64,000 nucleotides of DNA from Acidobacteriota bacterium (GTDB taxonomy: Bacteria; Acidobacteriota; Polarisedimenticolia; J045), in contig JANNUT010000052.1 in assembly GCA_031395565.1 (NCBI GenBank), positions 17,882 to 81,881 of the forward strand, written 5' to 3'. A program made the translations under genes and the position numbers. Below, piece after piece: positions 15,637-43,882 of this stretch; the stretch's first letter is position 1; the number at the start of each line of letters is the position of its first letter. The notes under the pieces were generated by a model, which worked only from the letters and a program-made list of their open reading frames with translations, was not told where the DNA came from and did not search any database.

Positions 15637-15718
15637 AGATGCCGGCCTGGGTCTATCGCCCCATCGTGTCCTTCGCGGCCGCGCCGCGACCTCGACGCTT
15701 CAGTGAGGAGATCGAGCC

Positions 15719-22000: not shown

Positions 22001-22681
22001 CTATTCGACGGTGAATCGGACGCCGGAATCGATGATGCCAGCCGCAATCGCATAGCGCGTGAGACCCGCCGTATCATGGATGTCGAGCTTACTCATCAGA
22101 TGCTGTCGATGCTTCTCCACGGTCTTGATGCTGATTCCCAGTTCATCGGCGGTCTGTTTGTTGGCCTTGCCTTCAGCGATCAGTTGGAGAACCTCCACCT
22201 CTCGGGACGTCAGGTGCACGGCCTTCGCCCCGCTGTGTCCTGTACCGCTGATGACTGACTTTCGCTCGCGCTCGCGCCGTCGCCTGGCGATGGATGTATC
22301 GAAGAACTGGTTGCCAGACTGGATTGCCCGAATTGCCTTAGGAAGTATCAGGGCCGAAGACTGCTTGATCAGGTATCCAGCGGCGCCGATCTCGACCGCT
22401 CGTTCGACATACTCGTCATCACCGTGCGCCGAAAGGACCAACACTTTGGTTGCGGGAGCGTTCTTGAGTACCTGCCGAGTAGCTTCCAGTCCATTCAAAA
22501 GCGGCATCGCGAGGTCCATCACGACCACGTCGGGTGCAAGCTGCTTGACGAGTTGTACAGCTTGGCGGCCGGAGCTTGCTTGCCCGACGACCAGGATGTC
22601 GGCTTCTGTCCCCAACAGGGCAGCGAGTCCCTCACGAACGATCTCGTGATCATCAACCAGCAAGACGGTGATCGGTTTCAT
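22001..22681 (-). CDS. NarL/LuxR-family response regulator
   Basis: 226 aa. The REC domain (VLLVDDHEIVREGL...DVVVMDLAMPLLNG) is followed by a LuxR HTH (LTSREVEVLQLIAEGKANKQTADELGISIKTVEKHRQHLMSKL). Confidence 0.9.
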   Translation of the reverse strand: MKPITVLLVDDHEIVREGLAALLGTEADILVVGQASSGRQAVQLVKQLAPDVVVMDLAMPLLNGLEATRQVLKNAPATKVLVLSAHGDDEYVERAVEIGAAGYLIKQSSALILPKAIRAIQSGNQFFDTSIARRRRERERKSVISGTGHSGAKAVHLTSREVEVLQLIAEGKANKQTADELGISIKTVEKHRQHLMSKLDIHDTAGLTRYAIAAGIIDSGVRFTVE

Positions 22682-22682
22682 C

Positions 22683-23852
22683 TCAAGAGCTCAAGCGGCG
22701 AGGCCGCCGCTGTGTGAGCCTGTCGCCGAATGGAACCAGTACGATGACGGTCGTGCCTTTGCTAGGCTCGGATTCGATGCTGAAGGTGCCGCCGACCATC
22801 TCGGTGCGCTCTCGCATCCCGAGCAACCCCAATCGCAGTCCCGGTTTGATGCGCGAGACGTCAGCCACCTTGAAAGACTTGCCGTCGTCGTGGATTTCCA
22901 TGCGGACGTTGTCTCCGAGTCTCTGGAACGTGACCTCCAGCAGATTTGCCCGAGCGTGCCTGTCGACATTCGTGAATGCTTCTTGAGCCACTCGATAGAG
23001 CACGGTCCGAACATCGCTTCGCAACTCCTCGATCGAAGCAAACGTCTTGAAATGAACTTCGATATGGGTTCGCTTGGAAAAGTCCGTCAGGTAGGACTTG
23101 AGCGCAGCAACGAGCCCTAGATCGTCTAGCAGCGGAGGTCGTAGCTCGCGTGCAAATCGGTGCACCCGGTTCAGCGATTTCTCCAGCAGCCTCTGGGTGC
23201 TAGCGATCTTACGCTTGAGGCTGGTCGTACTGACGGTGGCCTCCTTGGTCAGCGTTGCTAATCTGACATTGACGGCAGTCAGGGTCTGGCCGATTTCATC
23301 GTGGAGTTCTCGGCTGATCTGTTTTCGTTCCTCTTCATGGGCATACAGGATCTCGTGAGAGAGTCTCCGCAGCTGCTCCTGCAAACGCTCCGAACTCGCG
23401 AGTAGTTGACCGCAGTGCGCCTCGCTGGTCGCGAGGGCTTTTTGAGCCGATTCACGTTGACCGATTTCTCGCTCTAATTGACGGCGCAACGCGGCCAACT
23501 GTTTGGTCCGCTCGCGCAGCGTGGCGTTGGCACGAGTCAAGTTGCCGTTGCTTTTGATTGCCGTTCGATGGGCGTTCCCAAATGGCATGAGTGCCTTGAA
23601 GAAAAAGCTCGCGCTCCCCGTGGCGACTCGATTGCTCTTCGCGGCGCCGGTGCTCACAGAGAGCGCCGTTGCTAGGGCGCTCGCATGCATCTTGACCAGA
23701 TCGAACGTGTTCAACCCGGCGGCCAGCGCTTCGAGCCCGAGCAACTCGGCGGGCCGGAGGCTCGCGCTTCGCCCAGGCGCCAATTGCTTTCGCAACTCGA
23801 GCGTGTAGCGTCGCGACAAGCCGGTTTCCTGCACCTTAGAGTTCGAACTCAT
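22683..23852 (-). CDS. Cytoplasmic HisKA_3 sensor histidine kinase with an RsbU_N-like N-terminal domain and a coiled coil
   Basis: 389 aa with no TM segment. H-box EEERKQISRELHDEIGQTLTAV and an HATPase_c domain (N, G1 and G2 boxes). It ends 1 nt before the regulator gene. Confidence 0.85.
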   Translation of the reverse strand: MSSNSKVQETGLSRRYTLELRKQLAPGRSASLRPAELLGLEALAAGLNTFDLVKMHASALATALSVSTGAAKSNRVATGSASFFFKALMPFGNAHRTAIKSNGNLTRANATLRERTKQLAALRRQLEREIGQRESAQKALATSEAHCGQLLASSERLQEQLRRLSHEILYAHEEERKQISRELHDEIGQTLTAVNVRLATLTKEATVSTTSLKRKIASTQRLLEKSLNRVHRFARELRPPLLDDLGLVAALKSYLTDFSKRTHIEVHFKTFASIEELRSDVRTVLYRVAQEAFTNVDRHARANLLEVTFQRLGDNVRMEIHDDGKSFKVADVSRIKPGLRLGLLGMRERTEMVGGTFSIESEPSKGTTVIVLVPFGDRLTQRRPRRLSS

Positions 23853-23957
23853 GGTTCACCTCGGCGGAAGCGTTTCAAGCGCAACCACTCGCCGGGTATG
23901 CCATCGGACGACACACCAAAATCGCCGCCATTGTGAGCCTGCCTCCGGGACATGTCT

Positions 23958-23976
23958 ATGGGGCAAAACCCCCGCC
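23958..23976 (-). promoter_or_regulatory. Island motif copy, oriented toward the kinase-regulator operon (106 bp upstream of the ATG at 23852)
   Basis: The plus strand reads ATGGGGCAAAACCCCCGCC. The CCCCAT-proximal half is conserved and the distal half is degenerate. Confidence 0.4.
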
Positions 23977-24057: not shown

Positions 24058-24075
24058 GGTAGGGTTACACCCTAT
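24058..24075 (+). promoter_or_regulatory. Island motif copy (GGTAGGGTTACACCCTAT), oriented toward the 24215 micro-ORF
   Basis: It contains the perfect palindrome TAGGGT-TAC-ACCCTA and lies 140 bp upstream of the ATG at 24215. Confidence 0.5.
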
Positions 24076-24214: not shown

Positions 24215-24370
24215 ATGCTGTGGACTATTGCGGTAGTGCTCGTGTTGTTGTGGTTGCTTGGCCTCGTCAGCAGCTACACGATGGGCGGATTCATCCACCT
24301 GTTGCTGGTGATCGCCGTTATCGTCGTGCTGGTTCGAGTCATCCAAGGGCGGCCGATCACGAGTAGTTGA
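24215..24370 (+). CDS. lmo0937-family small membrane protein (51 aa; absent from the ORF track)
   Basis: GAAGGGAG RBS. MLWTIAVVLVLLWLLGLVSSYTMGGFIHLLLVIAVIVVLVRVIQGRPITSS matches the widespread MLWTI...HLLLV...I.GR micro-protein family. Confidence 0.7.
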   Translation: MLWTIAVVLVLLWLLGLVSSYTMGGFIHLLLVIAVIVVLVRVIQGRPITSS

Positions 24371-24474
24371 CGTGCTGTGACCTTTCGACGGTCTTTGCGC
24401 TCGACGTGCTGGATGGACTTCTGCTCGCTGATCTGAACTCTGTACCGCTCGAGGCAAGATCACTGGAGTTTCGT

Positions 24475-24711
24475 ATGAGGCCGAAAATCGCACTAGCAAT
24501 TGTATTGATGGCGATAGGTGCTGTGGCGCTCGCTTATCAGGGGATCACCTACACGACGAGAGAGAAGACTCTCGACCTCGGACCACTACAGGTGACCACC
24601 GAGAAGACCAACCGCATTCCGCTCCCGCCAATCGTCGGAGCGGTTGCGCTGGTTGGCGGCCTGGTTCTCTTGGTCGTCGATTCGAAGCGGTCTGCTCGGG
24701 CGACAGCATGA
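24475..24711 (+). CDS. Small two-TM membrane protein (paralogue of 35394-35678)
   Basis: 78 aa with a GGAG RBS. Pattern ...ALAYQGITYTTREKTLDLGPLQVTTEKTNRIPLPPIVGAVALVGGLVLLVVD. It shares the IPLPPI.GA.ALVGG...L. core with the 35678 ORF. Confidence 0.6.
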   Translation: MRPKIALAIVLMAIGAVALAYQGITYTTREKTLDLGPLQVTTEKTNRIPLPPIVGAVALVGGLVLLVVDSKRSARATA

Positions 24712-30041: not shown

Positions 30042-30443
30042 ATGAACAAAGTACTGTTGCTCGCATTGGTAGCCGTCGCGCTTTCAAGCGTTTCGATGGC
30101 TGGTCACGAAGTCGCCGTTCTCGACGGCACGAGTTGGAAGGTCGATGTCGATCCAGATTCCATGGCTAAGGACGCAGGTGAAAAGCAATTCAAGGAAACC
30201 ATGACGTTTGCGGACGGAAAGGTCTCCTTGAGCGCTCCGAAAGTCGGATTCGAATCAACACCGTATTCGGTAACCATGACGGGTAAGGACTTGACCTTCA
30301 AAGCAGAGCGCAGCAGTGCTGGCGAAGGCAGTTCCGTATGGACCGGCACCATTCATGGCAGCAACCTCGACGGCAAGTTGATTTGGACCAAGAACGATGG
30401 AACCGTTCTGACGTACACACTCAAAGGCAACAAGCTCGATTGA
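30042..30443 (+). CDS. Small secreted beta-rich protein, function unknown
   Basis: 133 aa. GGAGG RBS and signal peptide MNKVLLLALVAVALSSVSMA. Confidence 0.55.
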   Translation: MNKVLLLALVAVALSSVSMAGHEVAVLDGTSWKVDVDPDSMAKDAGEKQFKETMTFADGKVSLSAPKVGFESTPYSVTMTGKDLTFKAERSSAGEGSSVWTGTIHGSNLDGKLIWTKNDGTVLTYTLKGNKLD

Positions 30444-30465
30444 AGACTCCTTGTTTTGATTGCCG

Positions 30466-30499
30466 CTCCCTGGGCTTCCAGGCCCAGGGAGTCTTTTCT
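30466..30499 (+). terminator. Rho-independent terminator
   Basis: CTCCCTGGGC-ttccag-GCCCAGGGAG followed by TCTTTTCTC, 23 nt after the stop at 30443. Confidence 0.75.
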
Positions 30500-30564
30500 C
30501 AAAGCGTTCGGTTGCGACACGAACCTCGCGGCGGCCGCGTTATTCCAGCAGCCACGTTGCTTGG

Positions 30565-31833
30565 CTACCGGGCGCGGCTCATCAGCGGAACGCGCACCAC
30601 GATTTCGGTGCCGCAGCGGGGCGAGGACTTGATCTGGTGCGTGCCGCCGAGATAGTTGGCGCGCTCGCGCATCCCAAGCAGGCCGAGGCCACCCTTACCC
30701 TTGCGACGCGCGGGCTGATGATCTGGATCAAAGCCGATCCCATCGTCCTTGATCGCTAACTGTGCCCAGCCTCCTGCCTGCGTCAGGTTGATGGTCACAT
30801 GCTGAGCGCGGGCATGCTTTTCCACGTTTTGCAGGGCTTCTTGAAATATGCGGTAAAGCGTCAACTCGGTGGCGGCAGGCAGCCGCGCTGTCAGCCCGGC
30901 AGAGGCCAGATTCACGGACACTTTGGTGCGCTTGTCGAACTCCGCGCTGGTGAGGCGCAGCGCGGCGAGCAACCCCAATTGGTCGAGGACACGAGGCCGA
31001 AGATCGTGAGAGATGCGCTCGACTTCCTCAGCAGCCTTTCCTGCCAGGTCCTGGAGTTTCATCGCGTTGCTCTTCGTGGGGTCGTCGCGCTTCGAACAGC
31101 CGGCCACCAGCGCCTGGCTCCAGAATTGTACGGCGCAGAGCATTTGAGCGATGCCATCGTGCAACTCGAGCGCGACGCGCGCGCGCTCGGTTTCTTGCGC
31201 CTGAAACACACGATGAGTCAAGGTGCGTAGCAGTTCTTCGTTGCGCCGCGCCTCCGTCAGGTCCGTCACTACGGCGCTGATGGTCGCGGCGCGGGGACCA
31301 TACTTGGCAACATGACGGATGGAGATTTGCACCGGGATCTGCGATCCCTCGCGGGCTTGAAGCATGACAAGGAGTTTGGCTCCGGACTTGGCCTTGCGTT
31401 TCAGCACGACGCTGAGCGCCGCCCGGTCTTCCACGGTAAGAAAGCGGCCAAGTGAGCTGCCCGTCACCTGCTCCAGCGGGAACTCGAGCATCCGCGCAAA
31501 ACACTGGTTGGCGTAGAGAATGGTCTGGTCCGTTCCCAGCGTCAGCGCTCCTTCGTTCATGGATTCGATGAGATCACGGTAGGCGTCGCCAGCACCCTCT
31601 AAGGTGAACACCTGCCGGCCAAGTTCGCCCGCGACGAGCACCGTGTCTACTTCGCCATTGCGGATGGCGCGCAGCGTTTCCTCGGCCTCGGCCAGACGGG
31701 CGCGGAGTTCGGAGACGTTGTTGTCCGGCGCATTGCGTGCGCTCTCAGGCGAAAGCAGGCCGGTTACCCGACCGCTGCCCTTTGGCTTCGTCGCCTTGGA
31801 TTCTGAATTTTCGGCGTGACGATCTGGTTTCAC
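30565..31833 (-). CDS. Cytoplasmic PAS + HisKA_3 sensor histidine kinase (last gene of the kai operon)
   Basis: 422 aa. Coiled-coil N-terminus, then PAS (LIESMNEGALTLGTDQTILYANQCFARMLEF...). H-box ERARVALELHDGIAQML and an HATPase_c domain. The start overlaps the kaiB stop by 4 nt. Confidence 0.85.
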   Translation of the reverse strand: MKPDRHAENSESKATKPKGSGRVTGLLSPESARNAPDNNVSELRARLAEAEETLRAIRNGEVDTVLVAGELGRQVFTLEGAGDAYRDLIESMNEGALTLGTDQTILYANQCFARMLEFPLEQVTGSSLGRFLTVEDRAALSVVLKRKAKSGAKLLVMLQAREGSQIPVQISIRHVAKYGPRAATISAVVTDLTEARRNEELLRTLTHRVFQAQETERARVALELHDGIAQMLCAVQFWSQALVAGCSKRDDPTKSNAMKLQDLAGKAAEEVERISHDLRPRVLDQLGLLAALRLTSAEFDKRTKVSVNLASAGLTARLPAATELTLYRIFQEALQNVEKHARAQHVTINLTQAGGWAQLAIKDDGIGFDPDHQPARRKGKGGLGLLGMRERANYLGGTHQIKSSPRCGTEIVVRVPLMSRAR

Positions 31834-32198
31834 GGGACGGCCTCGCCTCTCTGGTCCAAATCAATCAGGCGAAACAACTCGGCGATCGTCGTCAGGTTAC
31901 CAATGAACCGTCGGACTGGCAGGGGCGATGCAATGACGAGCGTCGGCGTGGCAACGATCTGGTTTTCGCGCGCTAGACTCGGCTGTTGGTAGATGTCGAT
32001 CACTTCCAATTCGACTCGGCCTTTCAACGTCGTTTCGCACAGCGCACGAACGTGCACGATCGCTTGGCGCGACCGTGCTGTGACTCCCGCCACGAAGAGG
32101 CGCAGAACGTACTTGTCTCTGGTCGCGCGCGTCGGAGGCATCATAGCAGCGTGTTTCGTGTGACCGATCGCTTTCGTGATTCGTTTCATTGCAGTCAT
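31830..32198 (-). CDS. kaiB: KaiB-like protein (second copy)
   Basis: YVLRLFVAGVTARSRQAIVHVRALCETTLKGRVELEVIDIYQQPSLARENQIVATPTLV is the thioredoxin-like KaiB signature. It has an N-terminal extension of about 28 aa. Confidence 0.8.
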   Translation of the reverse strand: MTAMKRITKAIGHTKHAAMMPPTRATRDKYVLRLFVAGVTARSRQAIVHVRALCETTLKGRVELEVIDIYQQPSLARENQIVATPTLVIASPLPVRRFIGNLTTIAELFRLIDLDQRGEAVP

Positions 32199-32521
32199 CG
32201 TGCCGAGGACAGATCCAGACCTAAGAGCGCGCGCTTGGTATCCGAGAGCGTCCCGATAATGGTGCGTGCCGGCTTTGGCAGCCTGCGCACCACCGTAGGA
32301 ATCGCCAGGATCTGATCGTCCTTGGCAAAGTGAGGCTGCTTCAGCAAGTCAATCACCGTAATGCGATAGCGGCCCTTGAGCTGGCTTTCGCAGATCTCTT
32401 TCAACTTTGCGAAGGCCACTCGCGAGTTGGATGTCGAGCCGGCCACATAAAGCCGTAGTTGCCAGGGCTTGCGAGTGCCGCTCGAGCAAGGGGCCGCGCC
32501 CTCACTAGTCTCGGTCTTCAC
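32195..32521 (-). CDS. kaiB: KaiB-like protein (first copy)
   Basis: WQLRLYVAGSTSNSRVAFAKLKEICESQLKGRYRITVIDLLKQPHFAKDDQILAIPTVVRRLPKPARTIIGTLSD is the canonical KaiB sequence. Confidence 0.85.
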   Translation of the reverse strand: MKTETSEGAAPCSSGTRKPWQLRLYVAGSTSNSRVAFAKLKEICESQLKGRYRITVIDLLKQPHFAKDDQILAIPTVVRRLPKPARTIIGTLSDTKRALLGLDLSSAR

Positions 32522-34278
32522 TGAGTGTTTCTCCTGTTCTTGGACTTGCTTCGTGAACTGGTCGTCAGTTTCGCATCCGCCTGGCGTAAGATGCCGGACG
32601 CCGTTCGTTCGGTGCCCAGCACTGAAGCTCGCGTGCCTACCTGTTCGGCAGTGCGCCGTAGTTCCATGGCTTTGCTTTCATAGTTGGAACGCAGATTCTT
32701 GATTTGCCGTTCGAGAGCACTGCGCTCGCGATCCACCTCACGCCTGAGTCGAGCGGCTTCCTGTTGATTGGCTAAGACCGCGGCCCGTTCGAGGTCCTCT
32801 TGCGCCACGCGGGCAGACCCGGTCAACACGCCGCTGACACCGATGTAAGCGTCCACGACATCAACGCCGCGATCCGAGATCAAAAACTCGCGAACTTGAT
32901 TCGAGTGCGCCATCCCGCGCGCCTTGAGCACATACAGCACGCGATTGCGTTCGCCGTTGCCTTCGAGATCCCGCAACAGCACCCACGCGTCCATGAGAGA
33001 GGACATCGCACCTTCGTTCCGCTGCGGTCCAACGTCAGTCGGCGTCAGGCTGGTGAAGAGCGAGGTAACCTGTCCGCCCTTCAGGAAATCGATCAGCCTG
33101 GTCACCATTCCTCTGCCCTCGGACTCGGTGCCCGCGTCCATCAAGCTGGTGATTGGGTCCATGACCACAACGCGCGGTTGATAGGTGCTGATCTCTTTGA
33201 ACATGGTGGCGAGGTGCATTTCCAGGCCATAAAGCGAGGGCCGAGCCGAATGAAACCGGAGCAGGCCACGCTTGACCAACGGCTCCAATTCCAATCCGAT
33301 GGATCGCATGTTGCGGATGATTTGGTTGGGGGATTCCTCGAACGAGAAGAAGAGTGCGCGTTCTCCGCGCATCGCGGCAGCATGGGCGAAGTTGACGGCG
33401 ACAATCGTCTTGCCGGTACCGGCCGTACCCGAGAGAAAAATGCTGCTGCCGCGAAAAAACCCCTTCCCGCCCAGCATCGCGTCGAAGCGCGGGATGCCGG
33501 TAGCGATCCGCTGACTCGACACCGTGTGATTCAGCCCCAGCGACGTGATCGGGAGAACGCTGATGCCATCGTCGCCGATGAGGAAAGGGAATTCGTTGGT
33601 TCCGTGTAGCGCGCCGCGATACTTCACCACGCGCAAACTGCGCGTGGCGATCTGGTCGATGACCCGATGCTCGAGCAGGATGACGCAATCGGAGACGTAT
33701 TCCTCTAGCCCGTGGCGCGTCAGTGATTCGCGGCCGCGCTCTGCGGTAATGACAGCGGTGAGGCCTTTGGCTTTGAGCCAGCGAAAGAGTCGGTGCAACT
33801 CGCTGCGTAAAACGGCCTCGTTGGGCAGGTTAGCGAACAGCACCTCGAGCGTGTCCAACACCACGCGTTTGGCGCCGATGGAATCAATCGCGTGAGCCAG
33901 CCTGACGAACAGCCCTTCCAGATCGTAATCGCCGCTTTCTTGCAGTCCGTGGCGCTCGATCTGAACGTAGTCCACGACGATCTTCTTTCGTCGTATAAGC
34001 CCTGCGAGATCGAATCCGAGCGAAGCGACGTTGGCCTTCAACTCGTTCTCGGTCTCCTCGAAAGCCATCAATACGCCAGGCTCGCGGAACTGGGCCGCGC
34101 CGCGCACAAGGAACTCCGTGGCCAGCAGCGTCTTGCCACAACCGGCGCCGCCGCAAACCAGCGTGGGTCTTCCGCGCGGCAATCCGCCGCCGGTGATTTC
34201 ATCGAGACCTTGGATGCCGCTCAGACACCTGGGCAAGCGCGTCGTCGAAGGGGTGGGCTTACGAGGTGTGGTTGTCAT
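32518..34278 (-). CDS. kaiC: KaiC (double RecA-like ATPase) with an extended charged C-terminal tail
   Basis: 586 aa. CI Walker A GGAGCGKT and CII Walker A GTAGTGKT. GIQGLDEITGGGLPRGRPTLV; ...AMSSLMDAWVLLRDLEGNGERNRVLYVLKARGMAHSNQVREFLISDRG. Confidence 0.9.
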   Translation of the reverse strand: MTTTPRKPTPSTTRLPRCLSGIQGLDEITGGGLPRGRPTLVCGGAGCGKTLLATEFLVRGAAQFREPGVLMAFEETENELKANVASLGFDLAGLIRRKKIVVDYVQIERHGLQESGDYDLEGLFVRLAHAIDSIGAKRVVLDTLEVLFANLPNEAVLRSELHRLFRWLKAKGLTAVITAERGRESLTRHGLEEYVSDCVILLEHRVIDQIATRSLRVVKYRGALHGTNEFPFLIGDDGISVLPITSLGLNHTVSSQRIATGIPRFDAMLGGKGFFRGSSIFLSGTAGTGKTIVAVNFAHAAAMRGERALFFSFEESPNQIIRNMRSIGLELEPLVKRGLLRFHSARPSLYGLEMHLATMFKEISTYQPRVVVMDPITSLMDAGTESEGRGMVTRLIDFLKGGQVTSLFTSLTPTDVGPQRNEGAMSSLMDAWVLLRDLEGNGERNRVLYVLKARGMAHSNQVREFLISDRGVDVVDAYIGVSGVLTGSARVAQEDLERAAVLANQQEAARLRREVDRERSALERQIKNLRSNYESKAMELRRTAEQVGTRASVLGTERTASGILRQADAKLTTSSRSKSKNRRNTQ

Positions 34279-34520
34279 TCACGGCATCCTCTCGTCAATA
34301 CGGGCGAAGCGCGATTCGCCTCGAAGCAGTCCGCGCTATATCGCACTTGCTGTTGAGTGAAGTGAGGGTGCTGGTGAATCGGGGTGAATTCTCGCTGCCC
34401 TGGACGAAAGGCATTCGCACTGCATCCCAGTCCCAAGACGTGTCCTCATCGCGGTCCTACCATCCCTCGGCACCAAACCGTTCACCAACAACCACTATCG
34501 GCGATCGGCGGCCACGGTCT

Positions 34521-34536
34521 ATGGGGTGAACACCGC
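34521..34536 (-). promoter_or_regulatory. Island motif copy (minus strand GCGGTGTTCACCCCAT), oriented toward kaiC
   Basis: 243 bp upstream of the kaiC ATG at 34278. Confidence 0.45.
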
Positions 34537-34650
34537 ATAGACACCCGGGAGATGGCGACCGGGGTTGGCCGAGGACAAGCTAACCCGCGCGCGCAACAGA
34601 TCGAACGGAGGTGGGGGACTGAGCCTTTCCCCCACGACCGCGCCAGTGTG

Positions 34651-35397
34651 CTATCTCCGAAGATCGATCGTGAGCGACCTGTCGAGCGTGACGGTGAGTT
34701 CGGTTCCAACGGGCATCACGATCTCTCGACCCTTCGTGCCCGCAGCGATGCCGGTTCCGATGGCGCCACCGACGACCGCGCCGATCGCGGCATCTTTCGT
34801 ATCTCCGCCGAGAATCTTGCCCAAAATCGCGCCGCCCGCAGCACTTCCGCCGATGATTCCAGCGGTCTTGCTCTTGGAGTTAGCGATGCTGGTAACCGAA
34901 CCCGACATCGACACGCTATTGCCAGCCGGTGTCGTGATCGTCGTGAACGACAGTACGATCGATCCGCCCTTGACGGCGTTCTTCAACCCCTTCTTTGCAG
35001 GGCTGACGTCCGTCACCGTGCCACGAACCGTGCTTCCAACCGGGATCGCGACTCGATCACCGACCAATACGACAGCGGTTGTCATTGCCATTGCCGAGTC
35101 TCCGACCTGACTGGTCCCAGATCCAATAGGAGACGAGAGATGCATTCGGATCCCGGTCCCTTCGGGCACTGTGACGCGCACCGAAGCGGGCTCGCGTGCT
35201 TGCGCGATGGGGGAACCGCCGGAGGCCCTCGAGCGTACAGGCAATACCGCGCCGGCTCCGACGTCGCGCCCATCGCCTTGCGACGCGCCCAACGGTTCTT
35301 CGGATCCTTGTTGGCAGCCAAGACTGAGAGCGACGGCGCCCATCACAATGGCCGCGAGCGTAGCTTTGGAAATACGGTCGAGAATTCTGGTGTTCAT
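34651..35397 (-). CDS. Lipoprotein with a C-terminal glycine-zipper region
   Basis: 248 aa. Lipobox LSLGC. C-terminus GIIGGSAAGGAILGKILGG...AAIGAVVGGAIGTGIAAG. ATGA overlap with the upstream small membrane ORF. Confidence 0.65.
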   Translation of the reverse strand: MNTRILDRISKATLAAIVMGAVALSLGCQQGSEEPLGASQGDGRDVGAGAVLPVRSRASGGSPIAQAREPASVRVTVPEGTGIRMHLSSPIGSGTSQVGDSAMAMTTAVVLVGDRVAIPVGSTVRGTVTDVSPAKKGLKNAVKGGSIVLSFTTITTPAGNSVSMSGSVTSIANSKSKTAGIIGGSAAGGAILGKILGGDTKDAAIGAVVGGAIGTGIAAGTKGREIVMPVGTELTVTLDRSLTIDLRR

Positions 35398-35678
35398 GGT
35401 CTCTCCTTCGTAGAGAACGCGAACTCACGTCGCCTTACACTAGGCGTCAACGAGTCGGTAGATTTCTTCTTGTCATCGAGCAAAAAAGCGATACCGCCCA
35501 CGAGAGCGATAGCGCCGAGGATCGGTGGAAACGACGTTTCCTGGATTGGCGCAGCTTCCCGGAGTGTTGGGCTGGGATCGGCGTTTCGAAGACGCTTGAG
35601 GTAACTCTCGCCCTCAGTGGCGATTGTCACGACACCGAGACCGAGAAGAGCGATTCCTACAATGACCTTCAGGTTCAT
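35394..35678 (-). CDS. Small two-TM membrane protein (paralogue of 24475-24711)
   Basis: Start at 35678 after a GAGGAG RBS. MNLKVIVGIALLGLGVVTIA...SFPPILGAIALVGGIAFLLDD. Confidence 0.55.
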   Translation of the reverse strand: MNLKVIVGIALLGLGVVTIATEGESYLKRLRNADPSPTLREAAPIQETSFPPILGAIALVGGIAFLLDDKKKSTDSLTPSVRRREFAFSTKERP

Positions 35679-35759
35679 GGGCCACTCCTCTCGTGCAGTA
35701 GGAAAGACGTGTGCGCAGTACGACCGTTCGGACAGTACGTCAGCGGCCCTCACACCTCC

Positions 35760-35777
35760 ATGGGGCATAACCCTACC
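35760..35777 (-). promoter_or_regulatory. Island motif copy (minus strand GGTAGGGTTATGCCCCAT), oriented toward the 35678 operon; it also lies 83 bp upstream of the divergent M48 gene
   Basis: The plus strand reads ATGGGGCATAACCCTACC, 82 bp from the ATG at 35678. Confidence 0.5.
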
Positions 35778-35859
35778 GGGCGTCGCCGTGGGGCTATCAC
35801 CCCATCGCGCCTTTCGCGGCCGCGCCGCAATCTCGACGCTTCAGCGAGGAGATCAATCC

Positions 35860-37377
35860 ATGACTACCAAAGTGCTTCGAGTGGGCGCCAGAGCGAGCGT
35901 CATCGCGATGATCGCGGTGATCGCCGTCAGCGCTGTTTCGGCGCAAACGAAAATCAAACCAGGCTTCAATCTTTTCTCGACCGAGCAGGACGTGGAAATC
36001 GGGCGCCAGTCGGCCATTGAGGTCGAGCGTCAACTCCCGATCCTGCGAGATCGCTCCGCCAACGCGTACGTCACGGCGGTCGGCAAGCGCCTCGCGGCGA
36101 AAATGCCCGGCACAGGATTTACGTACCAGTTCAAGATCGTGAACACGTCAGACATCAATGCTTTTGCGCTACCCGGCGGCTTCATGTACCTCAACCGCGG
36201 GCTGATCGAAGCGGCAAAAAACGAAGGCCAATTGGCGGGGGTCATGGCACACGAAATGTCGCACGTGGCACTGCGGCATGGCACCAATCAGGCATCGAAG
36301 GCCTACATGGGACAAGCGGGGTTGGGAATCCTGGGCGGATTGATGGGCAAGGAGAAGGGCTCACCGAACAAGGTGATCAGTGCCGTTGGCGGGTTCGGAC
36401 TCAATGCGCTTTTCCTGAAGTTCAGTCGTACCGATGAAGAACAAGCAGACATCGTTGGTGCCCAAGCGATGGCTAAGGCGGGCTACAACCCGCAGGAGAT
36501 GGTCGACTTCTTCGAGACACTGAGAGCGGAACAATCGCATGATCCGAGTAAGCTAGAGCAGTACTTCAGCAGTCATCCGGCGCCCCAAGATCGTGCCGCT
36601 CGTATTCGCAAGGAAATGGCGATGTTGAGGATCCAACCTTCCGAACCGGTCGGTGGATTCAAACAAGCGAAAGCCACGCTCATGAGCAAGCCGGCAGCTC
36701 GGTCGATGCAGCAGATTGCCAAGAATCAGCCGGCCACTCCGCGGCCGCGGGAGTACCCGGAAAACGCCAGCAGCGAAGTCAATATCGAGGCGCCGTCGGC
36801 GACGTTCCGGACGTTCGAGCAGCGAAACAGAAACTTCACTATCGACTATCCGTCCAACTGGAACGCGACAGAGTCGGCAGATGGTCTGGGAATCACGCTT
36901 TCACCGCCTGGCGGAGTCGTGAGTTCTGGAAACGCTGAAGGCGATTTGATCTACGGTGTGGTGGTCAATCACTACGCACCGTTCCTGAACGAGGATGACA
37001 GCGGTAACGATCGGTTTTCTTTCATGGGATCGCCAAGCGAGCCCGGCGGCAGGGATCTCAGCCGCACCGATCTCGCCGAGGCGGTGAACGACCTGGTCGG
37101 ACAGATCGTTCGCACCAACCCCACGCTCAAGCTCGTTCCCGACTCGCAGCGCACCGAGACGATTGACGGTGGTGCCGCTCTCTCGCTTGTCTTGGCGGGG
37201 CGATCGGCGGTCACGAAGCGGGACGAACACGTCACGGTCTTCGCACGCGAGCTTTCTGATGACCACATCGTCTATGCGTTGTTTATTGCGCCAGGACAGA
37301 AGGACGCTCGACTTCGGGGAACGTTCGACCGCATGCTCAGCAGCTTGCGCGTGAACGACGAAGCAAGGCACCAATAG
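35860..37377 (+). CDS. Secreted M48-family zinc metallopeptidase
   Basis: Start at 35860 after a GAGGAG RBS, with a signal peptide. FALPGGFMYLNRG, HEMSHVALRHG, SRTDEEQADIVG. The C-terminal ~240 aa domain is of unknown function. Confidence 0.85.
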   Translation: MTTKVLRVGARASVIAMIAVIAVSAVSAQTKIKPGFNLFSTEQDVEIGRQSAIEVERQLPILRDRSANAYVTAVGKRLAAKMPGTGFTYQFKIVNTSDINAFALPGGFMYLNRGLIEAAKNEGQLAGVMAHEMSHVALRHGTNQASKAYMGQAGLGILGGLMGKEKGSPNKVISAVGGFGLNALFLKFSRTDEEQADIVGAQAMAKAGYNPQEMVDFFETLRAEQSHDPSKLEQYFSSHPAPQDRAARIRKEMAMLRIQPSEPVGGFKQAKATLMSKPAARSMQQIAKNQPATPRPREYPENASSEVNIEAPSATFRTFEQRNRNFTIDYPSNWNATESADGLGITLSPPGGVVSSGNAEGDLIYGVVVNHYAPFLNEDDSGNDRFSFMGSPSEPGGRDLSRTDLAEAVNDLVGQIVRTNPTLKLVPDSQRTETIDGGAALSLVLAGRSAVTKRDEHVTVFARELSDDHIVYALFIAPGQKDARLRGTFDRMLSSLRVNDEARHQ

Positions 37378-39247: not shown

Positions 39248-41986
39248 TCAGTGCTTTCGCACCTGCAGCCACGTAACGAGCCCGACTGCCAAGCAGAAAC
39301 CGAGAACCACCGTCCACGTATCGCCCGATGCTGCCGGGAGAGTCGTTTCCATCTTTGGAGAGAGCGTGACGTCGCCATCGCCGATAACAATGAAACCAGC
39401 CCACGCAGCAGGCGGGATCCCTGCAGCGCTCAGCTCGCGTTGCGCTCCAGCAAGTGCGGCAGCCACGGTCGACCCATGCGCGAGACGACGGTAGAACTTC
39501 TCGACCAACGTGGCCGCCTCAGAGTCACGAACAGGCCAGATGGTACCGATCACCGCTCGTGCGCCGCTTCCGAGAAAACTCCGCGCCAGACTCAACGCAC
39601 CTTCGCCTCGCAACTCACGTCCGTCGGCGCTGCTGCAGGCGGAGATCACCACGAGCTTTCCATCGAGTTTCAGCTTGGCGATCTCACGCGGTTGCAACAG
39701 CCCGTCCTCGCGCGGATCGCCGGGCACTAGAAGAATGGCGGAACGAGACGCGTGCCCGACATTGACGATCGCATGCGTAGCGAAGTGGATTACCCCGTAC
39801 GGCGATAGGTCCAGTCGCTTGAAAGACGCTTCGCTGGCACGTGATGCGAACAACGCGCGGCTCACGCCGCCGACCGTGTCGACCATCGATTGCACTTCGT
39901 CGCGACTGCGTGGCAAGGCAAGCTGTTCGTCAGCGAATTCAGGCCCGCGCGTTGTGTCGCGACCTGCGCGATTGCGAGTCCAGGTCACGGCACCGAGTCC
40001 TAGCGCAGAATGCGAGAGTTGATGCGGCTGAGCCATCCGCAGTGAGAGCCAACTCGTGGCCGATGTGGCGAGGCTAATCTCGAAACGCTCGATCAACGGA
40101 CGGCCGGTCTGGGGATCGGGCAGTGCGGCCAGCGGAAGCCGCGCGACAGGCCCATCGGGAACGATCACGAGTTTGTGAATTGACCTGGGAAGCGCATCGA
40201 TCACGGGACGCAGCAGCCCTTCTTCGATCGCAGCACCCATCGCGGCTGGGACCTCGTCGCGGCGCTCGAGTGTCCCGAGGTAGAGCGAGAGGGTCGACCC
40301 TGCTTCGAATGCGGGGAGCGGCAAGATCTGGTCGCCGGCGATGGTGCTGACCATCGCCCAGCTTGCCGACACGGCTGCTGGCGGAAGTTGCAGCATCACG
40401 AGCGCTTCATCCGCCCCGAGTTGGCTGCGAACCTCGTCGAGCGTGGCGATTCGCGGGCGGCGCGCTCGAGCCCACGCGGGGTCGGCCTGCGCGATGCGGG
40501 CCGAGAGTTGTTGCTCGCGCACTTCGAGACGATCAAGACCCTGCAGCAGGAAATCCCGCTCCTCGTCCGCCAATCTCGAGTCGGCCAGTTGAGATTGAAT
40601 CGACACGATCTGTTGCACCACGAGCGCTAACGCAGTTTCGTCGGCGCTGGTCTTGGGTCGCTCTACTCCCGCGTCCAGCGCGTTGAGGGTGACGAGCGTG
40701 CGTGCTCGCAGCGCCTCCATCGTGGCGTAGGCACGGGGGATATCGGCCGGGGCTGAATCGAGCCCGACCTGTGAGGCAAGCCGATAGTAGTACTCGGCAG
40801 ATCTCGATACGATCCCTGCGCGTGATTCGGCCGAACTCTCGCGATCTCGCAGCGTTTCACGGATTTGGATCGCCCGCTCCAAGTTGACGATCGCTGCCGC
40901 GCGATCTCCCGCCCATTGGTGCAATCGTGCCATCGCCCCATGAAGTTCGGTGGGGTCGAGCACGTTCGCGGATCGCCGCTGGTCCCTCAGCAGTGATTCC
41001 ACCGATCGAATCGAGTTTGGAATCTGAGTCGGATCGACCTGTGCCAGCCCCAGGGCATAGCGCATTCGGGACAGCAGTCGGAACTCGACGCAACTCGCGC
41101 CCGTTGCGCGCTCGATACAGCGCTGGTTCCATTCGAGCGATTCGGGCGCCGCCGTCAAAGCTCCCAACTCGCACGCCGCCAAGATTTCGCCCGAGGGGAA
41201 ACCGATCGCGCGCGCTAAATCGTAGACTCGGCGCGTATGTGCTACGGCTTCGTCGGTCGTTACCAACCCTCCTTCGCTCATCAGGCGCATTACCGTCGCG
41301 ATACCGTCTTTGGTCTCCACGCGACAACGCTCATGGTCGCCACAGTTCTCGAGACGCTGAGCGAAGTACCCAAGTGCCTCCGGGTAGAGCTGCGACCTCA
41401 GAGCCGCATCGCCGGCCTCACGCAGCAACTTCGACCTCAAGGCGAGTGTGAGTGTGCTGAAGTATTCTGCCCGGACGGCGCCACGCATGAGGGTGAGCGC
41501 CTCCTCGAACCGACCGTCGAAGTCGAGTTGTCCGGCCTGGTTGTAACTCTGCCACGCGGTGAGGATCGGGTCGTCGGCAGCGGCGACGAGCGGTGCGGCT
41601 GCTTTCATCAGTCGCTGCACCTCGTCGACATTGCGATAGCGATTGGCGTCCCGCGCAAGGGCCAGCGCGGCGAATGCTTCACCCGCAGGTGAACCTGCAG
41701 CAGCGAACAGCTTCAACGCTCGTTTGAGCGGGTCTCGTCCGCGTGTCGGATCGAGCTCGATCAGCGTGGCGCCGAAGGTCGCGAGCAACCACGGGTTCTC
41801 CGGGTCGTTCTCGAGCCACCGCACGAGCTGTTGCTCGCGGCTGGCAGCCTCGGCCGGCGAGCGAGCGTTGCGGTAGCACTCGGCTTCAAGCGGACTTACA
41901 GGCGGAGCTTGCAACAGACGCTCGCACGGGTCTCCCGCCATTGCGTGCGCTACAAACAGCGCGAGAAGTGCGGCGGTCGATCTCAT
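39248..41986 (-). CDS. Exported TPR-repeat CHAT-domain protein with a C-terminal TM anchor
   Basis: Start moved to 41986 (MRSTAALLALFVAHAMA signal). Long TPR-like helical region. CHAT core ...GVIHFATHAIVN...LLVPGD...LVVISACSSADG. C-terminus WTVVLGFCLAVGLVTWLQVRKH. Confidence 0.85.
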   Translation of the reverse strand: MRSTAALLALFVAHAMAGDPCERLLQAPPVSPLEAECYRNARSPAEAASREQQLVRWLENDPENPWLLATFGATLIELDPTRGRDPLKRALKLFAAAGSPAGEAFAALALARDANRYRNVDEVQRLMKAAAPLVAAADDPILTAWQSYNQAGQLDFDGRFEEALTLMRGAVRAEYFSTLTLALRSKLLREAGDAALRSQLYPEALGYFAQRLENCGDHERCRVETKDGIATVMRLMSEGGLVTTDEAVAHTRRVYDLARAIGFPSGEILAACELGALTAAPESLEWNQRCIERATGASCVEFRLLSRMRYALGLAQVDPTQIPNSIRSVESLLRDQRRSANVLDPTELHGAMARLHQWAGDRAAAIVNLERAIQIRETLRDRESSAESRAGIVSRSAEYYYRLASQVGLDSAPADIPRAYATMEALRARTLVTLNALDAGVERPKTSADETALALVVQQIVSIQSQLADSRLADEERDFLLQGLDRLEVREQQLSARIAQADPAWARARRPRIATLDEVRSQLGADEALVMLQLPPAAVSASWAMVSTIAGDQILPLPAFEAGSTLSLYLGTLERRDEVPAAMGAAIEEGLLRPVIDALPRSIHKLVIVPDGPVARLPLAALPDPQTGRPLIERFEISLATSATSWLSLRMAQPHQLSHSALGLGAVTWTRNRAGRDTTRGPEFADEQLALPRSRDEVQSMVDTVGGVSRALFASRASEASFKRLDLSPYGVIHFATHAIVNVGHASRSAILLVPGDPREDGLLQPREIAKLKLDGKLVVISACSSADGRELRGEGALSLARSFLGSGARAVIGTIWPVRDSEAATLVEKFYRRLAHGSTVAAALAGAQRELSAAGIPPAAWAGFIVIGDGDVTLSPKMETTLPAASGDTWTVVLGFCLAVGLVTWLQVRKH

Positions 41987-41994
41987 CGCGATGG

Positions 41995-42636
41995 TCAATG
42001 CAGCGTCGTGAAGTAGGTCACGGTGCTGACCGCGCGACCATCGGGCAGCGTCGCGTGCACACGCCAGGCGACAGTGTCGTTCACCGCGACCGGTGCGAGC
42101 GCCTCGGGCGGCACGAGATACTCGGTCATCGTCAACGCCATCTGACGCGAAAGCAGTTTCAGATCGGTGGTGGCAACTTCGATGTCGTAGAGCGTGCCGC
42201 GCGGGCCCGGCGTCCAACGCAGCAAGAATCGATCGCGCGGCAATGCCGTCGCATCGCCGAGCGCGGACTGAATCTCCACCACTGTAGTGCGGAGTACGGG
42301 CGCTGGTTGTGGCTGATCACGCACGACGAGCCAAATCGCAGCGACCGTCACGATCGTGGCGGCAATCAGCGTGATTTGCGGCCACATGCGTCGTAGCGGC
42401 TGCACATTCGATGCGGATTGGCGCGTTGGATCGTGAAAGGCTGCCGCCAAGCGCCAGCTTCCCGCGCAATGCGCGCATGATGCGATGTGCCCGATGACAC
42501 GCAGCCGTTCTTCGGCCTGCGATTCCAACGTGACCGCGCGCCAGATCGACTCGGAATCGGGGCATTCGGGGGTTAAGACCTCGGCCCCGGCGCGAGCGCG
42601 CCATTGCGCGGCCAACGCGCGATCGTCGAGCGTCAT
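41995..42636 (-). CDS. ZAS-type (H-x3-C-x2-C) single-pass anti-sigma factor
   Basis: The ATG at 42636 overlaps the sigma gene stop (ATGA). HIASCAHC motif, one TM helix (ITLIAATIVTVAAIWLVV), and a beta-rich periplasmic domain of about 100 aa. Confidence 0.7.
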   Translation of the reverse strand: MTLDDRALAAQWRARAGAEVLTPECPDSESIWRAVTLESQAEERLRVIGHIASCAHCAGSWRLAAAFHDPTRQSASNVQPLRRMWPQITLIAATIVTVAAIWLVVRDQPQPAPVLRTTVVEIQSALGDATALPRDRFLLRWTPGPRGTLYDIEVATTDLKLLSRQMALTMTEYLVPPEALAPVAVNDTVAWRVHATLPDGRAVSTVTYFTTLH

Positions 42637-43160
42637 CGGCTCCACCCCTTTCCGGTGAGGCAGTCACGCAGATCCTGTAGGCCGCGATAGAGACTGCTTT
42701 CCAGTCGCTTGACGGCCCAGTTCAAGAGCGCCGCCGACTCGGGAGCGCTGTGTCCTTGAAGGAACAGCACCACCGCTGGCCGACGTGTTTCGCGCAGCCC
42801 TTTCACGCACTCGCCGATCGCCGCACCCAGTTCGGCGCTCTCCAGCTGCCGTTGCGGGTCGTGAATAGGCGCCGCTGCCGGTTCGGTGTTCGATTCCTGG
42901 TCATCGAGCGAGTCCTCGCGCCGGCTCCGGCGGCGCCGGAGCTCGTCGATGACGGCGTGATAGGCCGCCTTACGCCAATAAGACGATTGCCAGACCGGTT
43001 TCCCTTCAGCCTTTTCGAGCAGGCGAAGCAGCACTTCGTGCGCGATGTCTTCGGCTTGAGCCGAGATCACGGCGGGGCAGACGCCGCGCACGGTCCGAGC
43101 GATCTCTGCTCGCATGCTGGCGGAGTCTGGATCGGCTTGGCTGGTGAGAAGTGGATTCAT
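42633..43160 (-). CDS. ECF-type sigma-70 family factor
   Basis: 175 aa. Region 2 (AEDIAHEVLLRLL...YWRKAAYHAVIDELRRR) and region 4 (RRPAVVLFLQGHSAPESAALLNWAVKRLESSLYRGL). Confidence 0.85.
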   Translation of the reverse strand: MNPLLTSQADPDSASMRAEIARTVRGVCPAVISAQAEDIAHEVLLRLLEKAEGKPVWQSSYWRKAAYHAVIDELRRRRSRREDSLDDQESNTEPAAAPIHDPQRQLESAELGAAIGECVKGLRETRRPAVVLFLQGHSAPESAALLNWAVKRLESSLYRGLQDLRDCLTGKGWSR

Positions 43161-43231
43161 GGGGCTGCCGCCGCCGCAGTCTAAGCGGAGTGACAGCCGG
43201 GCGTATCGTGCTTTGTAGGTTGGATCTCTTG

Positions 43232-43882
43232 CTAAGAAAGCAGCCGCTCACGCAACGCCTTGGCGACCGCCTCGCTCTTGGAATGAACTTCGAGCTTTTC
43301 GTAGATCCGCCGGAGGTGAAACGAGACGGTATGGGGCGTGATTTCGAGTTCGGCGGCTGCCGTCTTATAGCTGTGCCCCTCGACGAGCAGCTTGAGGATT
43401 CGCTGCTCGTGAGGGGTCAACTCGTAGTCGGCGCGCGGTGGCGGGCGGAACTCTCGAAAGAGCGTCACCACCTTGCGCGCCACCTCGGGTGTCATGGGTG
43501 AGCCACCATCCTTGGCCTCGCGTAGCGCCTCGATCAGCCTCTCGGGAGGCGTGTTCTTCAACAAATAGCCGCAAGCCCCAGCGCACAGCGCTTCGAAAAT
43601 GCGCTCGTTGTCGTGATAAATCGTGAGCACCAACATCGGCAGTGATGGGAATCGCTGGCGCAATAGCCGAATTCCTTCGATGCCGCTCATGCCGGGCAAA
43701 CCGATGTCGATCAACGCCACATCGACCTCGGTTTGCCGTAACTGCGCGAGTGCTGCTTCCATCGATCCGTACGTACCGGCGCAGGCAAATCCTGGCTCGG
43801 AATCGAGTAGCGACTGCAGCAGTGAGCGCAGCTCGGGGCGGTCTTCGACGACGGCTACGCGGATCGGCACGGGATCGCTCAT
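43232..43882 (-). CDS. NarL/LuxR-family response regulator
   Basis: 216 aa. REC domain (IRVAVVEDRPELR...DVALIDIGLPGMSG) followed by a LuxR HTH (LTPHEQRILKLLVEGHSYKTAAAELEITPHTVSFHLRRIYEKL). Confidence 0.9.
   Translation of the reverse strand: MSDPVPIRVAVVEDRPELRSLLQSLLDSEPGFACAGTYGSMEAALAQLRQTEVDVALIDIGLPGMSGIEGIRLLRQRFPSLPMLVLTIYHDNERIFEALCAGACGYLLKNTPPERLIEALREAKDGGSPMTPEVARKVVTLFREFRPPPRADYELTPHEQRILKLLVEGHSYKTAAAELEITPHTVSFHLRRIYEKLEVHSKSEAVAKALRERLLS

Follow-up and report, generated by a model that had tools for sequence, protein, structure and literature searches.

The 64,000-nt stretch of DNA analysed here (the window: positions 17,882 to 81,881, forward strand, of contig JANNUT010000052.1 in assembly GCA_031395565.1) carries a four-gene kai operon on its minus strand, in which a single kaiC is followed by two distinct kaiB genes, kaiBa and kaiBb, and by the gene of a soluble histidine kinase with a PAS domain. 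Based on comparisons with structurally characterised Kai proteins, on the layout of related loci and on a conserved DNA motif, we assign KaiC with high confidence to the KaiC2 class, the hourglass class of Rhodobacter sphaeroides that works without KaiA, and propose how the module may signal through a NarL-type response regulator encoded elsewhere in the window. The operon and its surroundings comprise the following features.

32518-34278, minus strand: kaiC, 586 aa, ATG start
32195-32521, minus strand: kaiBa, the first kaiB, 108 aa, GTG start overlapping the kaiC stop, AGGAG 9 nt upstream
31830-32198, minus strand: kaiBb, the second kaiB, 122 aa, ATG start overlapping the kaiBa stop
30565-31833, minus strand: PAS-HisKA_3-HATPase kinase gene, 422 aa, GTG start overlapping the kaiBb stop
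30465-30492, no strand assigned: GC-rich 12-bp hairpin from a terminator-like scan, between the kinase gene and a convergent plus-strand open reading frame

Presence and positions of the four genes agree with an earlier prediction made from the sequence alone (the original prediction), and so do the pairwise 4-nt overlaps, except that these do not all read ATGA: the junctions are GTGA (kaiC/kaiBa), ATGA (kaiBa/kaiBb) and GTGA (kaiBb/kinase). Shine-Dalgarno-like GGAG/GAGG sequences precede the kaiC, kaiBa and kinase starts. The strong hairpin separates the kinase gene from the convergent reading frame, and hence probably marks the end of the operon. The kai complement of the window is limited to one kaiC and two kaiB; no homologues of KaiA, SasA, CikA or RpaA were recognised among the window genes examined, no systematic KaiA search having been made. 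A sigma-70 promoter scan of 30300-35900 returned no sites, which is uninformative for this phylum, and an Rfam scan detected no RNA element in the kai region, its only hit being a tmRNA at 13389-13741.

KaiC matches the Pfam KaiC domain twice and reaches 691 bits on NF006799 (cutoff 408), while it scores 324.8 bits, below the cutoff of 546, on TIGR02655, the cyanobacterial KaiC equivalog. Both Walker A boxes are intact as predicted, reading GGAGCGKT at residue 43 and GTAGTGKT at residue 284, and the catalytic EE pairs are found at 74/75 and 314/315 (FEE at 73 and 313). The closest match in the Protein Data Bank (PDB) is KaiC of Rhodobacter (Cereibacter) sphaeroides, below R. sphaeroides or C. 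sphaeroides, with its proteins KaiC-RS and KaiB-RS (8DBA; E = 1e-184, 618 bits, residues 19-546 aligned). KaiC of Synechococcus elongatus falls far behind in the same search, at about 320 bits. Sequence identity to the C. sphaeroides protein amounts to 56.7%. Two further elements of KaiC are of particular importance for its classification.

32998-33003, minus strand: codons of Ser426-Ser427, the predicted phosphosites, aligned with S413/S414 of KaiC-RS
32521-32820, minus strand: C-terminal extension, residues 487-586, a predicted long helix/coiled coil followed by a conserved distal motif

In a hidden Markov model (HMM) alignment with 8DBA and 8FWI, AMSSLMD of the window protein coincides with GLSSLMD of KaiC-RS and with GLEELMD of 8FWI, the S413E/S414E phosphomimetic, bearing out the hand alignment by which Ser-Ser had originally been read at the phosphosites; the Ser426-Ser427 column is without variation in 32 Verrucomicrobiota KaiCs. 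The tail of about 100 residues makes the protein 586 aa long, compared with 519 aa for S. elongatus KaiC, and the alignment to 8DBA extends to residue 546, i.e. into the coiled-coil extension of KaiC-RS. The tail is 38% charged, with only two Pro/Gly residues in 490-560, and many of its columns are invariant across the 32 orthologues. An AlphaFold2 (AF2) model places a single helix over residues 487-572; the overall model is of low confidence (mean pLDDT, the per-residue confidence score, 48) and hence weak evidence, and we therefore use only its long C-terminal helix.

This architecture is that of a characterised clade, distinguished by a tail about 50 residues longer, two serine phosphosites and KaiA-independent autophosphorylation via a coiled-coil dodecamer; in R. 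sphaeroides, KaiB speeds ATPase activity and dephosphorylation, and the system is an hourglass (Pitsawong et al. 2023, PMC10076222). Two serines have also been described as the KaiC2 signature (Schmelling et al., PMC5520375). The KaiC2 placement follows from the identity to R. sphaeroides KaiC, the long C-terminal tail and the Ser-Ser sites, and the long helical tail, which replaces KaiA in R. sphaeroides KaiC, gives the predicted KaiA-independence a known structural explanation; with such a tail, a KaiA is not expected. The original prediction had correctly recognised a KaiBC module that lacks KaiA and is closely coupled to a PAS histidine kinase, and had overlooked both the tail and the KaiC2 class, now the probable answer to the subgroup placement it suggested.

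Past the part that aligns with the R. sphaeroides coiled coil, the distal end of the tail (residues 548-586, window 32521-32637) contains a motif, GTRxxVLGTERxASGILRQAD, that is invariant in the 32 Verrucomicrobiota KaiCs and could be a docking site. The second-best KaiC match, a database protein of 954 aa (P0002), has four KaiC domains in one product and may represent a tandem duplication or an artefact of assembly or gene calling; a kinase-KaiC fusion is ruled out by the four KaiC domains and the lack of kinase domains.

The distribution of the operon was analysed in one genome per GTDB species, where 416 stretches encode a relative, of which the best 80 were examined. Their labels are nearly all those of metagenome-assembled genomes (MAGs) of Verrucomicrobiota or the PVC group; the few labelled otherwise (Bifidobacteriaceae, Chitinophaga, Aestuariivirga, Acidiferrales) look like misbinning. 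KaiC of these relatives is 76-82% identical to the window protein. Layouts were counted by tblastn with the window proteins at the 66 loci with enough flank among the best 80 of 416. The complete order kaiC-KaiBa-KaiBb-PAS kinase occurs at 49 of the 66 loci and kaiC-KaiBb-PAS kinase at another 14, while two have only a KaiBa-like copy and one has no kinase, a kinase orthologue following kaiBb in 65/66. Altogether, the order is kept at 63/66 loci, in MAGs labelled under several verrucomicrobial orders and with proteins 50-80% identical to those of the window. The combination of tandem kaiB genes with a HisKA_3 kinase, which the original prediction had considered unusual and for which it suggested a gene-order survey, is therefore the majority layout. 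Moreover, the tandem is found on a Pararhizobium plasmid as well, and a kaiC-kaiB-PAS/histidine kinase operon has been published (PMC4794148).

Both KaiB proteins exceed the Pfam KaiB (PF07689) gathering score of 27, KaiBa with 83.3 and KaiBb with 74.9 bits, and both remain below the cutoff of 110 of the NCBIfam cyanobacterial KaiB equivalog (96 and 70, respectively). They are 41% identical to each other, consistent with the divergence noted originally. In the PDB, KaiBa matches cyanobacterial KaiBs with 84-86 bits and KaiB-RS with 79 bits, and the closest match of KaiBb is KaiB-RS in 8FWJ. KaiBb has an N-terminal extension and an altered C-terminal half, its divergence residing mainly in this fold-switching half. 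The tandem order is fixed in the relatives, with the KaiBa type first (57/57) and the KaiBb type second (58/58), and where a single kaiB is present KaiBb is the retained copy in 16 of 17 loci. The mean distance of KaiB-RS and cyanobacterial KaiBs is 0.49-0.53 to KaiBa versus 0.62 to KaiBb, which identifies KaiBa as the canonical copy and KaiBb as divergent but universal. Proteins of the KaiBb type are plentiful (2,476 matches) and are called KaiB wherever sources give a name. The AF2 model of KaiBb (pLDDT 69) is thioredoxin-like, beta-alpha-beta-alpha-beta-alpha, and superposes on 5JYT, 5JWO and 8FWJ_M with template modelling (TM) scores of 0.72-0.80, resembling fold-switched KaiB, Legionella KaiB and the SasA N-domain, a state to which AF2 tends. 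KaiBa thus probably regulates KaiC in the canonical way. KaiBb, which occurs throughout the clade, diverges in the fold-switch half and invariably adjoins the kinase gene, may have specialised in KaiC binding or serve as an adaptor to the kinase. The tandem itself would represent an old ordered pair and not a local duplication. Presence of KaiBa showed no clear correlation with HK2, a second kinase introduced below, upstream of kaiC across the loci.

The kinase carries PAS_9, HisKA_3 and HATPase_c domains by Pfam/NCBIfam, and its translation contains the H-box ELHDGIAQ followed by QNVEKHA, DDGIGF and GLGLLGMRER. With a maximum Kyte-Doolittle 19-residue mean of 1.31 there is no transmembrane-like segment, so that the soluble PAS + HisKA_3 + HATPase kinase of the original prediction stands. 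A LOV-type PAS domain was ruled out by eye, the NCRFLQ motif being absent. Residues 40-128 (about 89 residues; ELRxRLxEAEExLxAIRxGEVDAxVV ... YRxxxExMxxGA ... LYAN) share 39-42% identity with the N-terminal parts of the HWE kinases linked to Kai in C. sphaeroides and Rhizobium, while the transmitters differ (HisKA_3 versus HWE_HK). Indeed, this N-terminal coiled-coil/PAS module aligns across all five Kai-linked kinases examined, including a hybrid kinase from Pararhizobium, despite their differing transmitters, and in about 1.7 Mb of verrucomicrobial DNA it matched essentially only the Kai-linked kinase. HisKA_3 therefore appears as a lineage-specific transmitter on a conserved Kai-associated sensor.

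Comparison with known systems, in Alphaproteobacteria based on annotated plasmid records (C. sphaeroides 2.4.1 pB, Rhizobium sp. BG4 and Pararhizobium qamdonense p3), places the operon next to the R. sphaeroides KaiBC hourglass (8DBA, 8FWI, 8FWJ; PMC10076222). The two share the KaiC identity given above, the C-terminal extension, the Ser-Ser sites, the lack of KaiA, and a kaiB directly downstream followed by a PAS kinase, whose N-terminal module is 39% identical. In C. sphaeroides 2.4.1 pB and Rhizobium sp. BG4, the order is kaiC-kaiB-PAS/HWE kinase. However, R. sphaeroides has one KaiB and an HWE/HisKA_2 transmitter, in contrast to two paralogues and HisKA_3 here; in the present lineage, the conserved cluster also includes a NarL-type regulator and a second HisKA_3 kinase; the window KaiC tail is about 20 residues longer, with the conserved distal motif; and the host, whose best matches suggest Verrucomicrobiota, is non-phototrophic. 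A kaiC-kaiB-PAS/histidine kinase operon was reported for Rhodopseudomonas palustris and R. sphaeroides, the R. palustris system being KaiA-less and proto-circadian, i.e. an hourglass (Ma et al. 2016, PMC4794148); R. palustris thus shares gene order, predicted single operon and KaiA-lessness with the window, and differs in its single kaiB.

Pararhizobium qamdonense p3, known from RefSeq annotation only, has kaiC-kaiB-kaiB-PAS kinase, with a KaiC 57% identical, a first KaiB 63.5% identical to KaiBa and a second 53% identical to KaiBb, although its kinase is a PAS-HisKA-HATPase-receiver hybrid and no NarL-type regulator is adjacent. This orthologous tandem indicates that the kaiB pair is old or that the whole cluster moved horizontally, and that it is not peculiar to this genome. 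The Legionella pneumophila KaiBC pair (Lpp1115 KaiB, PDB 4KUN) is likewise KaiA-less, KaiC2-type and linked to stress resistance, and its KaiB was crystallised in the thioredoxin-like fold matched by the KaiBb model; yet Legionella KaiB is far more distant, with 47-51 bits versus 68-79 bits for KaiB-RS. Cyanobacterial KaiABC has in common the double-domain KaiC ATPase/kinase, the KaiB fold family and a two-component output, in which two kinases converging on one regulator form a possible analogy. It differs in having Ser-Thr instead of Ser-Ser sites, HisKA kinases with an OmpR-type regulator instead of HisKA_3 with a NarL-type regulator, and a self-sustained oscillator where hourglass behaviour is expected here.

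The core of the operon accordingly belongs to a structurally characterised class, and its operon type is already published. What appears undescribed in the literature searched, which contained nothing relevant on KaiC in Verrucomicrobia, on Kai with HisKA_3, or on Kai gene neighbourhoods, is the pairing of KaiBa and KaiBb in fixed order, the HisKA_3/NarL output that includes a second kinase, and the conserved operator.

No response regulator adjoins the kai operon, in agreement with the original prediction. However, the window contains a specific candidate about 8 kb away, the regulator at 22001, together with the kinase HK2.

22001-22681, minus strand: NarL/VraR-type response regulator, 226 aa, Response_reg + GerE, the proposed cognate of the Kai-linked kinases
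22683-23852, minus strand: HK2, a soluble HisKA_3-HATPase kinase by Pfam, 389 aa, H-box ELHDEIGQ intact

All receiver residues of regulator 22001 (D10, D11, D55, S84 and K106) are present, and over its full length it is 62-65% identical to the Kai-linked regulators of two relatives' loci, L081 and L083. The other NarL-type regulator considered, at 43232, is only 29-30% identical to the same proteins. HK2 shares 49% identity with the kinase encoded ahead of kaiC in L081, where the order is HK2 (RsbU_N-weak + HisKA_3 + HATPase)-kaiC-kaiB-kaiB-PAS/HisKA_3 kinase-Response_reg/GerE regulator, with gaps of 0-15 nt and 8 nt between kinase and regulator; in L083, the regulator start overlaps the kinase stop. 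An orthologue of the regulator lies straight after the PAS kinase in 26/60 loci, ahead of kaiC in 10/68 and anywhere in the locus in 34/52, and an HK2 orthologue lies directly upstream of kaiC in 22/68. The full string from HK2 through kaiC and the kinase to the regulator is seen in about 19 of the best 80 loci; elsewhere, HK2 and the regulator form an operon of their own, as in the window. The kai genes thus occur both within and apart from kinase-regulator operons, which argues strongly that they share a pathway. PAS kinase, HK2 and regulator 22001 have MctS, MctS and MctR, respectively, as best models, all below threshold. Orthology to the adjacent kinase-regulator pairs in 26 of 60 relatives suggests that the PAS kinase may pair with regulator 22001, and the problem of the missing regulator appears largely resolved at the level of sequence comparison.

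Many HK2-regulator operons in metagenome contigs are headed by a shorter HK2 paralogue of about 230 aa (L179 10818-11516, L200 10055-10753, L093 4345-5016), in which the N-terminal domain and HisKA_3 helix are kept, ELQD replaces ELHD and the ATPase domain is missing; it is likely a pseudo-kinase. L081 has a 103-aa remnant of it, and the window has none. Regulator 43232, with its identity of about 30%, is no orthologue of the Kai-linked regulators; its gene overlaps that of its own Reg_prop/HisKA_3 kinase (43879-46935), with which it forms an unrelated system.

Regulator 22001 may be connected to the kai operon through DNA motifs, of which the relevant copies are given here.

34519-34540, no strand assigned: near-palindrome CTATGGGGTG-AA-CACCGCATAG (core ATGGGGTG-AA-CACCGCAT), about 240 nt upstream of the kaiC ATG, candidate operator
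23956-23975, plus strand: motif copy CTATGGGGCAAAACCCCCGC, 105 nt upstream of the HK2 start
24058-24075, minus strand: degenerate motif copy ATAGGGTGTAACCCTACC, in the divergent promoter region shared with the HK2 copy

The original prediction had tied kai to a putative regulon by an island motif, the 18-mer ATGGGGCAWAACCCTACC, upstream of kaiC. This motif does exist in the window, with eight matches at up to 3 mismatches versus 0.48 expected, and is found upstream of genes for BON, DUF362 and Ysc84 proteins, of two M48 peptidase paralogues and of the HK2-regulator operon. At the same tolerance, the 372-nt gap upstream of kaiC contains no copy, the nearest true one being at 35760, with two genes in between. 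The gap holds a palindromic relative instead, which shares a half-site with the island motif and is one mismatch off a perfect 10-2-10 palindrome. A cis-element hence links the kai operon with the neighbouring stress-type genes, as claimed, but it is not the island motif itself.

In the relatives, the 8-mers most widely shared upstream of kaiC at 72 loci are TATGGGGT, ATGGGGTG and TGGGGTGA, each in 16-25 loci. A degenerate pattern has 124 copies in 1.07 Mb of loci, compared with about one expected from our own composition estimate, and 29 of these copies lie within 600 nt upstream of kaiC. Two logos emerge, the palindrome CTATGGGGTG-WW-CACCCCATAG and the island motif cYATGGGGTGWWACCCTACC, and either one is found within 450 nt of the operon head in 23/71 loci. 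In loci with HK2 ahead of kaiC, the palindrome instead stands before the first gene of the longer operon, at a distance of about 105 nt in L008 and L030, for example. In 120 stretches from an unbiased metagenome scan for the perfect palindrome, HK2 and/or regulator orthologues occur on the same stretch in about 20; the palindrome is directly upstream of these orthologues in about seven, four of which have it at roughly 100 nt from the start. The 105-nt spacing at HK2 in the window fits the spacing of about 100 nt between palindrome and HK2-type genes in the metagenome contigs. We infer that regulator 22001 would bind the motif and autoregulate, with kai as a frequent, non-universal member of its regulon. 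The G-rich/C-rich inverted repeat with a 2-nt spacer may resemble NarL/DosR-family boxes.

Ten ATGGGG-type copies, all intergenic, fall within 24 kb of the window (15619, 17833, 17878, 23958, 24058, 26726, 28433, 34521, 35760 and 38977), flanking BON, DUF362, M48, Ysc84, a sugar transferase, a cytochrome c protein, small membrane proteins, HK2-regulator and kaiC; ATGGGG-type motifs are heavily over-represented in Verrucomicrobiota contigs generally. The M48 peptidase genes at 15619-16390 and 35760-37377 share segments of 83-90% nucleotide identity that include the upstream region with the island motif, located 98 nt before the start of each gene, and the second copy encodes a much longer protein; the pair is a recent duplication of gene plus promoter. 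Small membrane protein genes at 24215-24711 and 35394-35679 adjoin motif copies. Two paralogous small membrane proteins of about 95-114 aa have the common ending ...PPI(V/L)GA(V/I)ALVGG..., and a 51-aa hydrophobic protein may resemble the lmo0937 small stress-membrane family. At a coverage of at least 50%, the island proteins (BON, M48, Ysc84 and others) are not conserved beside the relatives' kai clusters; other BON proteins occur nearby.

Taken together, we favour, as somewhat more probable than its alternatives combined, a KaiA-independent hourglass or energy-state sensor that signals via the PAS-HisKA_3 kinase and HK2 to regulator 22001, controlling a stress-type regulon together with the kai and HK2 operons. 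Starting from observed homology, conserved catalytic and phosphosite residues, gene order and motif conservation, we infer all protein-protein, phosphotransfer and DNA-binding steps as follows. By homology with R. sphaeroides KaiC, the long C-terminal helix would pair KaiC hexamers through a coiled coil and keep the A-loop region exposed, allowing KaiC to autophosphorylate Ser426/Ser427 without KaiA. KaiB would then bind the CI ring of phosphorylated, post-hydrolysis KaiC, upon which ATPase activity and dephosphorylation would speed up. The phosphorylation state would thereby track ATP/ADP and elapsed time in an hourglass-like manner, without a self-sustained clock. As suggested by synteny, the translationally coupled PAS-HisKA_3 kinase would read the KaiC/KaiB state and, jointly with the paralogous HK2, set the phosphorylation of the regulator. 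Motif placement in turn suggests that the regulator recognises the ATGGGGTG-N2-CACCCCAT palindrome together with the motifs related to it by a half-site; candidate bound sites are ATGGGGTGAACACCCCAT and the regulon sites ATGGGGTG-N2-CACCCCAT and ATGGGGYRWWACCCTACC, upstream of kaiC, HK2-regulator and stress-type genes (BON, M48 peptidases, Ysc84, small membrane proteins). Through these sites, the module would gate a stress/dormancy regulon and autoregulate. For the output chain from the kinases via regulator 22001 to the operator, we consider the chances about even.

Several points weigh against this proposal. The AF2 model of KaiC is of low confidence (pLDDT 48), and AF2 favours the fold-switched state for KaiBs generally, so that the KaiBb model says little on switching. 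KaiC is almost never found near the metagenome palindrome, with one weak match in 120, implying that the motif marks a broad regulon and not a kai-specific site. In addition, the motif is near the operon head in only about one third of the relatives, and kai is hence no universal member of the regulon. The palindrome is assigned to the regulator by an autoregulation heuristic only, and another transcription factor could bind it. HK2 and the regulator could also function as a two-component system on their own, having no more than a regulon in common with kai. Finally, Legionella KaiBC, also of the KaiC2 type, serves stress resistance without demonstrated timing (cited in PMC5520375).

The last point leads to a stress-response switch without timing, in which KaiC and KaiB act as an ATPase/phospho-switch as in Legionella pneumophila and the kinase signals independently. 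Such a switch is compatible with the stress role of Legionella KaiC2 cited in PMC5520375, with the location of the operon among BON, M48 peptidase, Ysc84, glycine-zipper and small membrane protein genes, with BON and small stress proteins near the relatives' kai loci too, and with a non-phototrophic host phylum, for which a day-length cue is not obvious. We nevertheless regard it as rather unlikely. By its score of 618 bits, KaiC stands much nearer to the R. sphaeroides protein, and it has retained the features on which the hourglass cycle depends, namely the coiled-coil tail and both Ser sites; its identity of about 80% across the phylum, tail included, argues for a constrained multi-state machine. 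Neither does a stress role exclude an hourglass, which can gate a stress regulon.

Alternatively, the PAS kinase may be an input component that senses redox, light or a metabolite through its PAS domain and resets KaiBC, with regulator 22001 served only by HK2. An input role has been proposed for R. sphaeroides (cited in PMC5520375), the N-terminal PAS sensor is conserved across phyla while the transmitter is swapped (HWE, HisKA hybrid, HisKA_3), and in the window the regulator adjoins HK2 rather than the PAS kinase. Yet the regulator straight after the PAS kinase in 26/60 relatives is the usual signature of a cognate pair, the H-box and ATP-binding boxes are intact, and KaiC is without a receiver domain to take a phosphoryl group from a histidine kinase, making this arrangement improbable in our assessment. 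Mere co-location of the four genes, with overlaps arising by chance in a compact genome, is effectively refuted by synteny, namely the same order in 63/66 loci at 50-80% protein identity and an equivalent order in Alphaproteobacteria.

Returning to the hourglass proposal, its significance lies in the output that it would give a KaiBC timer outside cyanobacteria. For the systems of R. sphaeroides and R. palustris, neither an output regulator nor a DNA target site was found in PMC10076222, PMC4794148 and PMC5520375. Synteny and motif conservation here provide a testable chain from KaiC2 and the KaiB(s) via the PAS-HisKA_3 kinase and a second kinase to one NarL-type regulator and an 18-bp palindrome. 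They also point to Kai-linked kinases that keep one N-terminal PAS sensor while the transmitter family is swapped between phyla. Since the system appears widespread in Verrucomicrobiota, a phylum that is abundant in soil and freshwater and has cultured members, experiments are feasible. In its most far-reaching and still doubtful form, the proposal would amount to an undescribed Kai circuit in Verrucomicrobiota: a KaiC2 hourglass, KaiBa as canonical regulator of KaiC and KaiBb as a free-standing SasA-N-like adaptor, two antagonistic HisKA_3 kinases acting on one NarL-type regulator, and a phylum-wide operator ATGGGGTG-N2-CACCCCAT. If true, this circuit would gate a stress/dormancy regulon that includes the kai genes, as an analogue of the SasA/CikA-RpaA output assembled from non-homologous parts.

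Two further regions of the window deserve mention. A separate signalling cluster at 39248-46935 comprises a 989-aa CHAT-domain protein, an ECF-like sigma factor (42633-43160), the non-orthologous NarL-type regulator mentioned above (43232-43882) and its 1018-aa Reg_prop/HisKA_3 kinase, and is unrelated to the Kai module. The tmRNA gene at 13389-13741 (184 bits in Rfam) is followed by three tandem 103-nt units (to 13965), each repeating the tmRNA 3' end (GGYTCAATTCCCACCGCCTCCACCA...); tmRNA 3' ends are common integration sites, but three copies so close together are odd.

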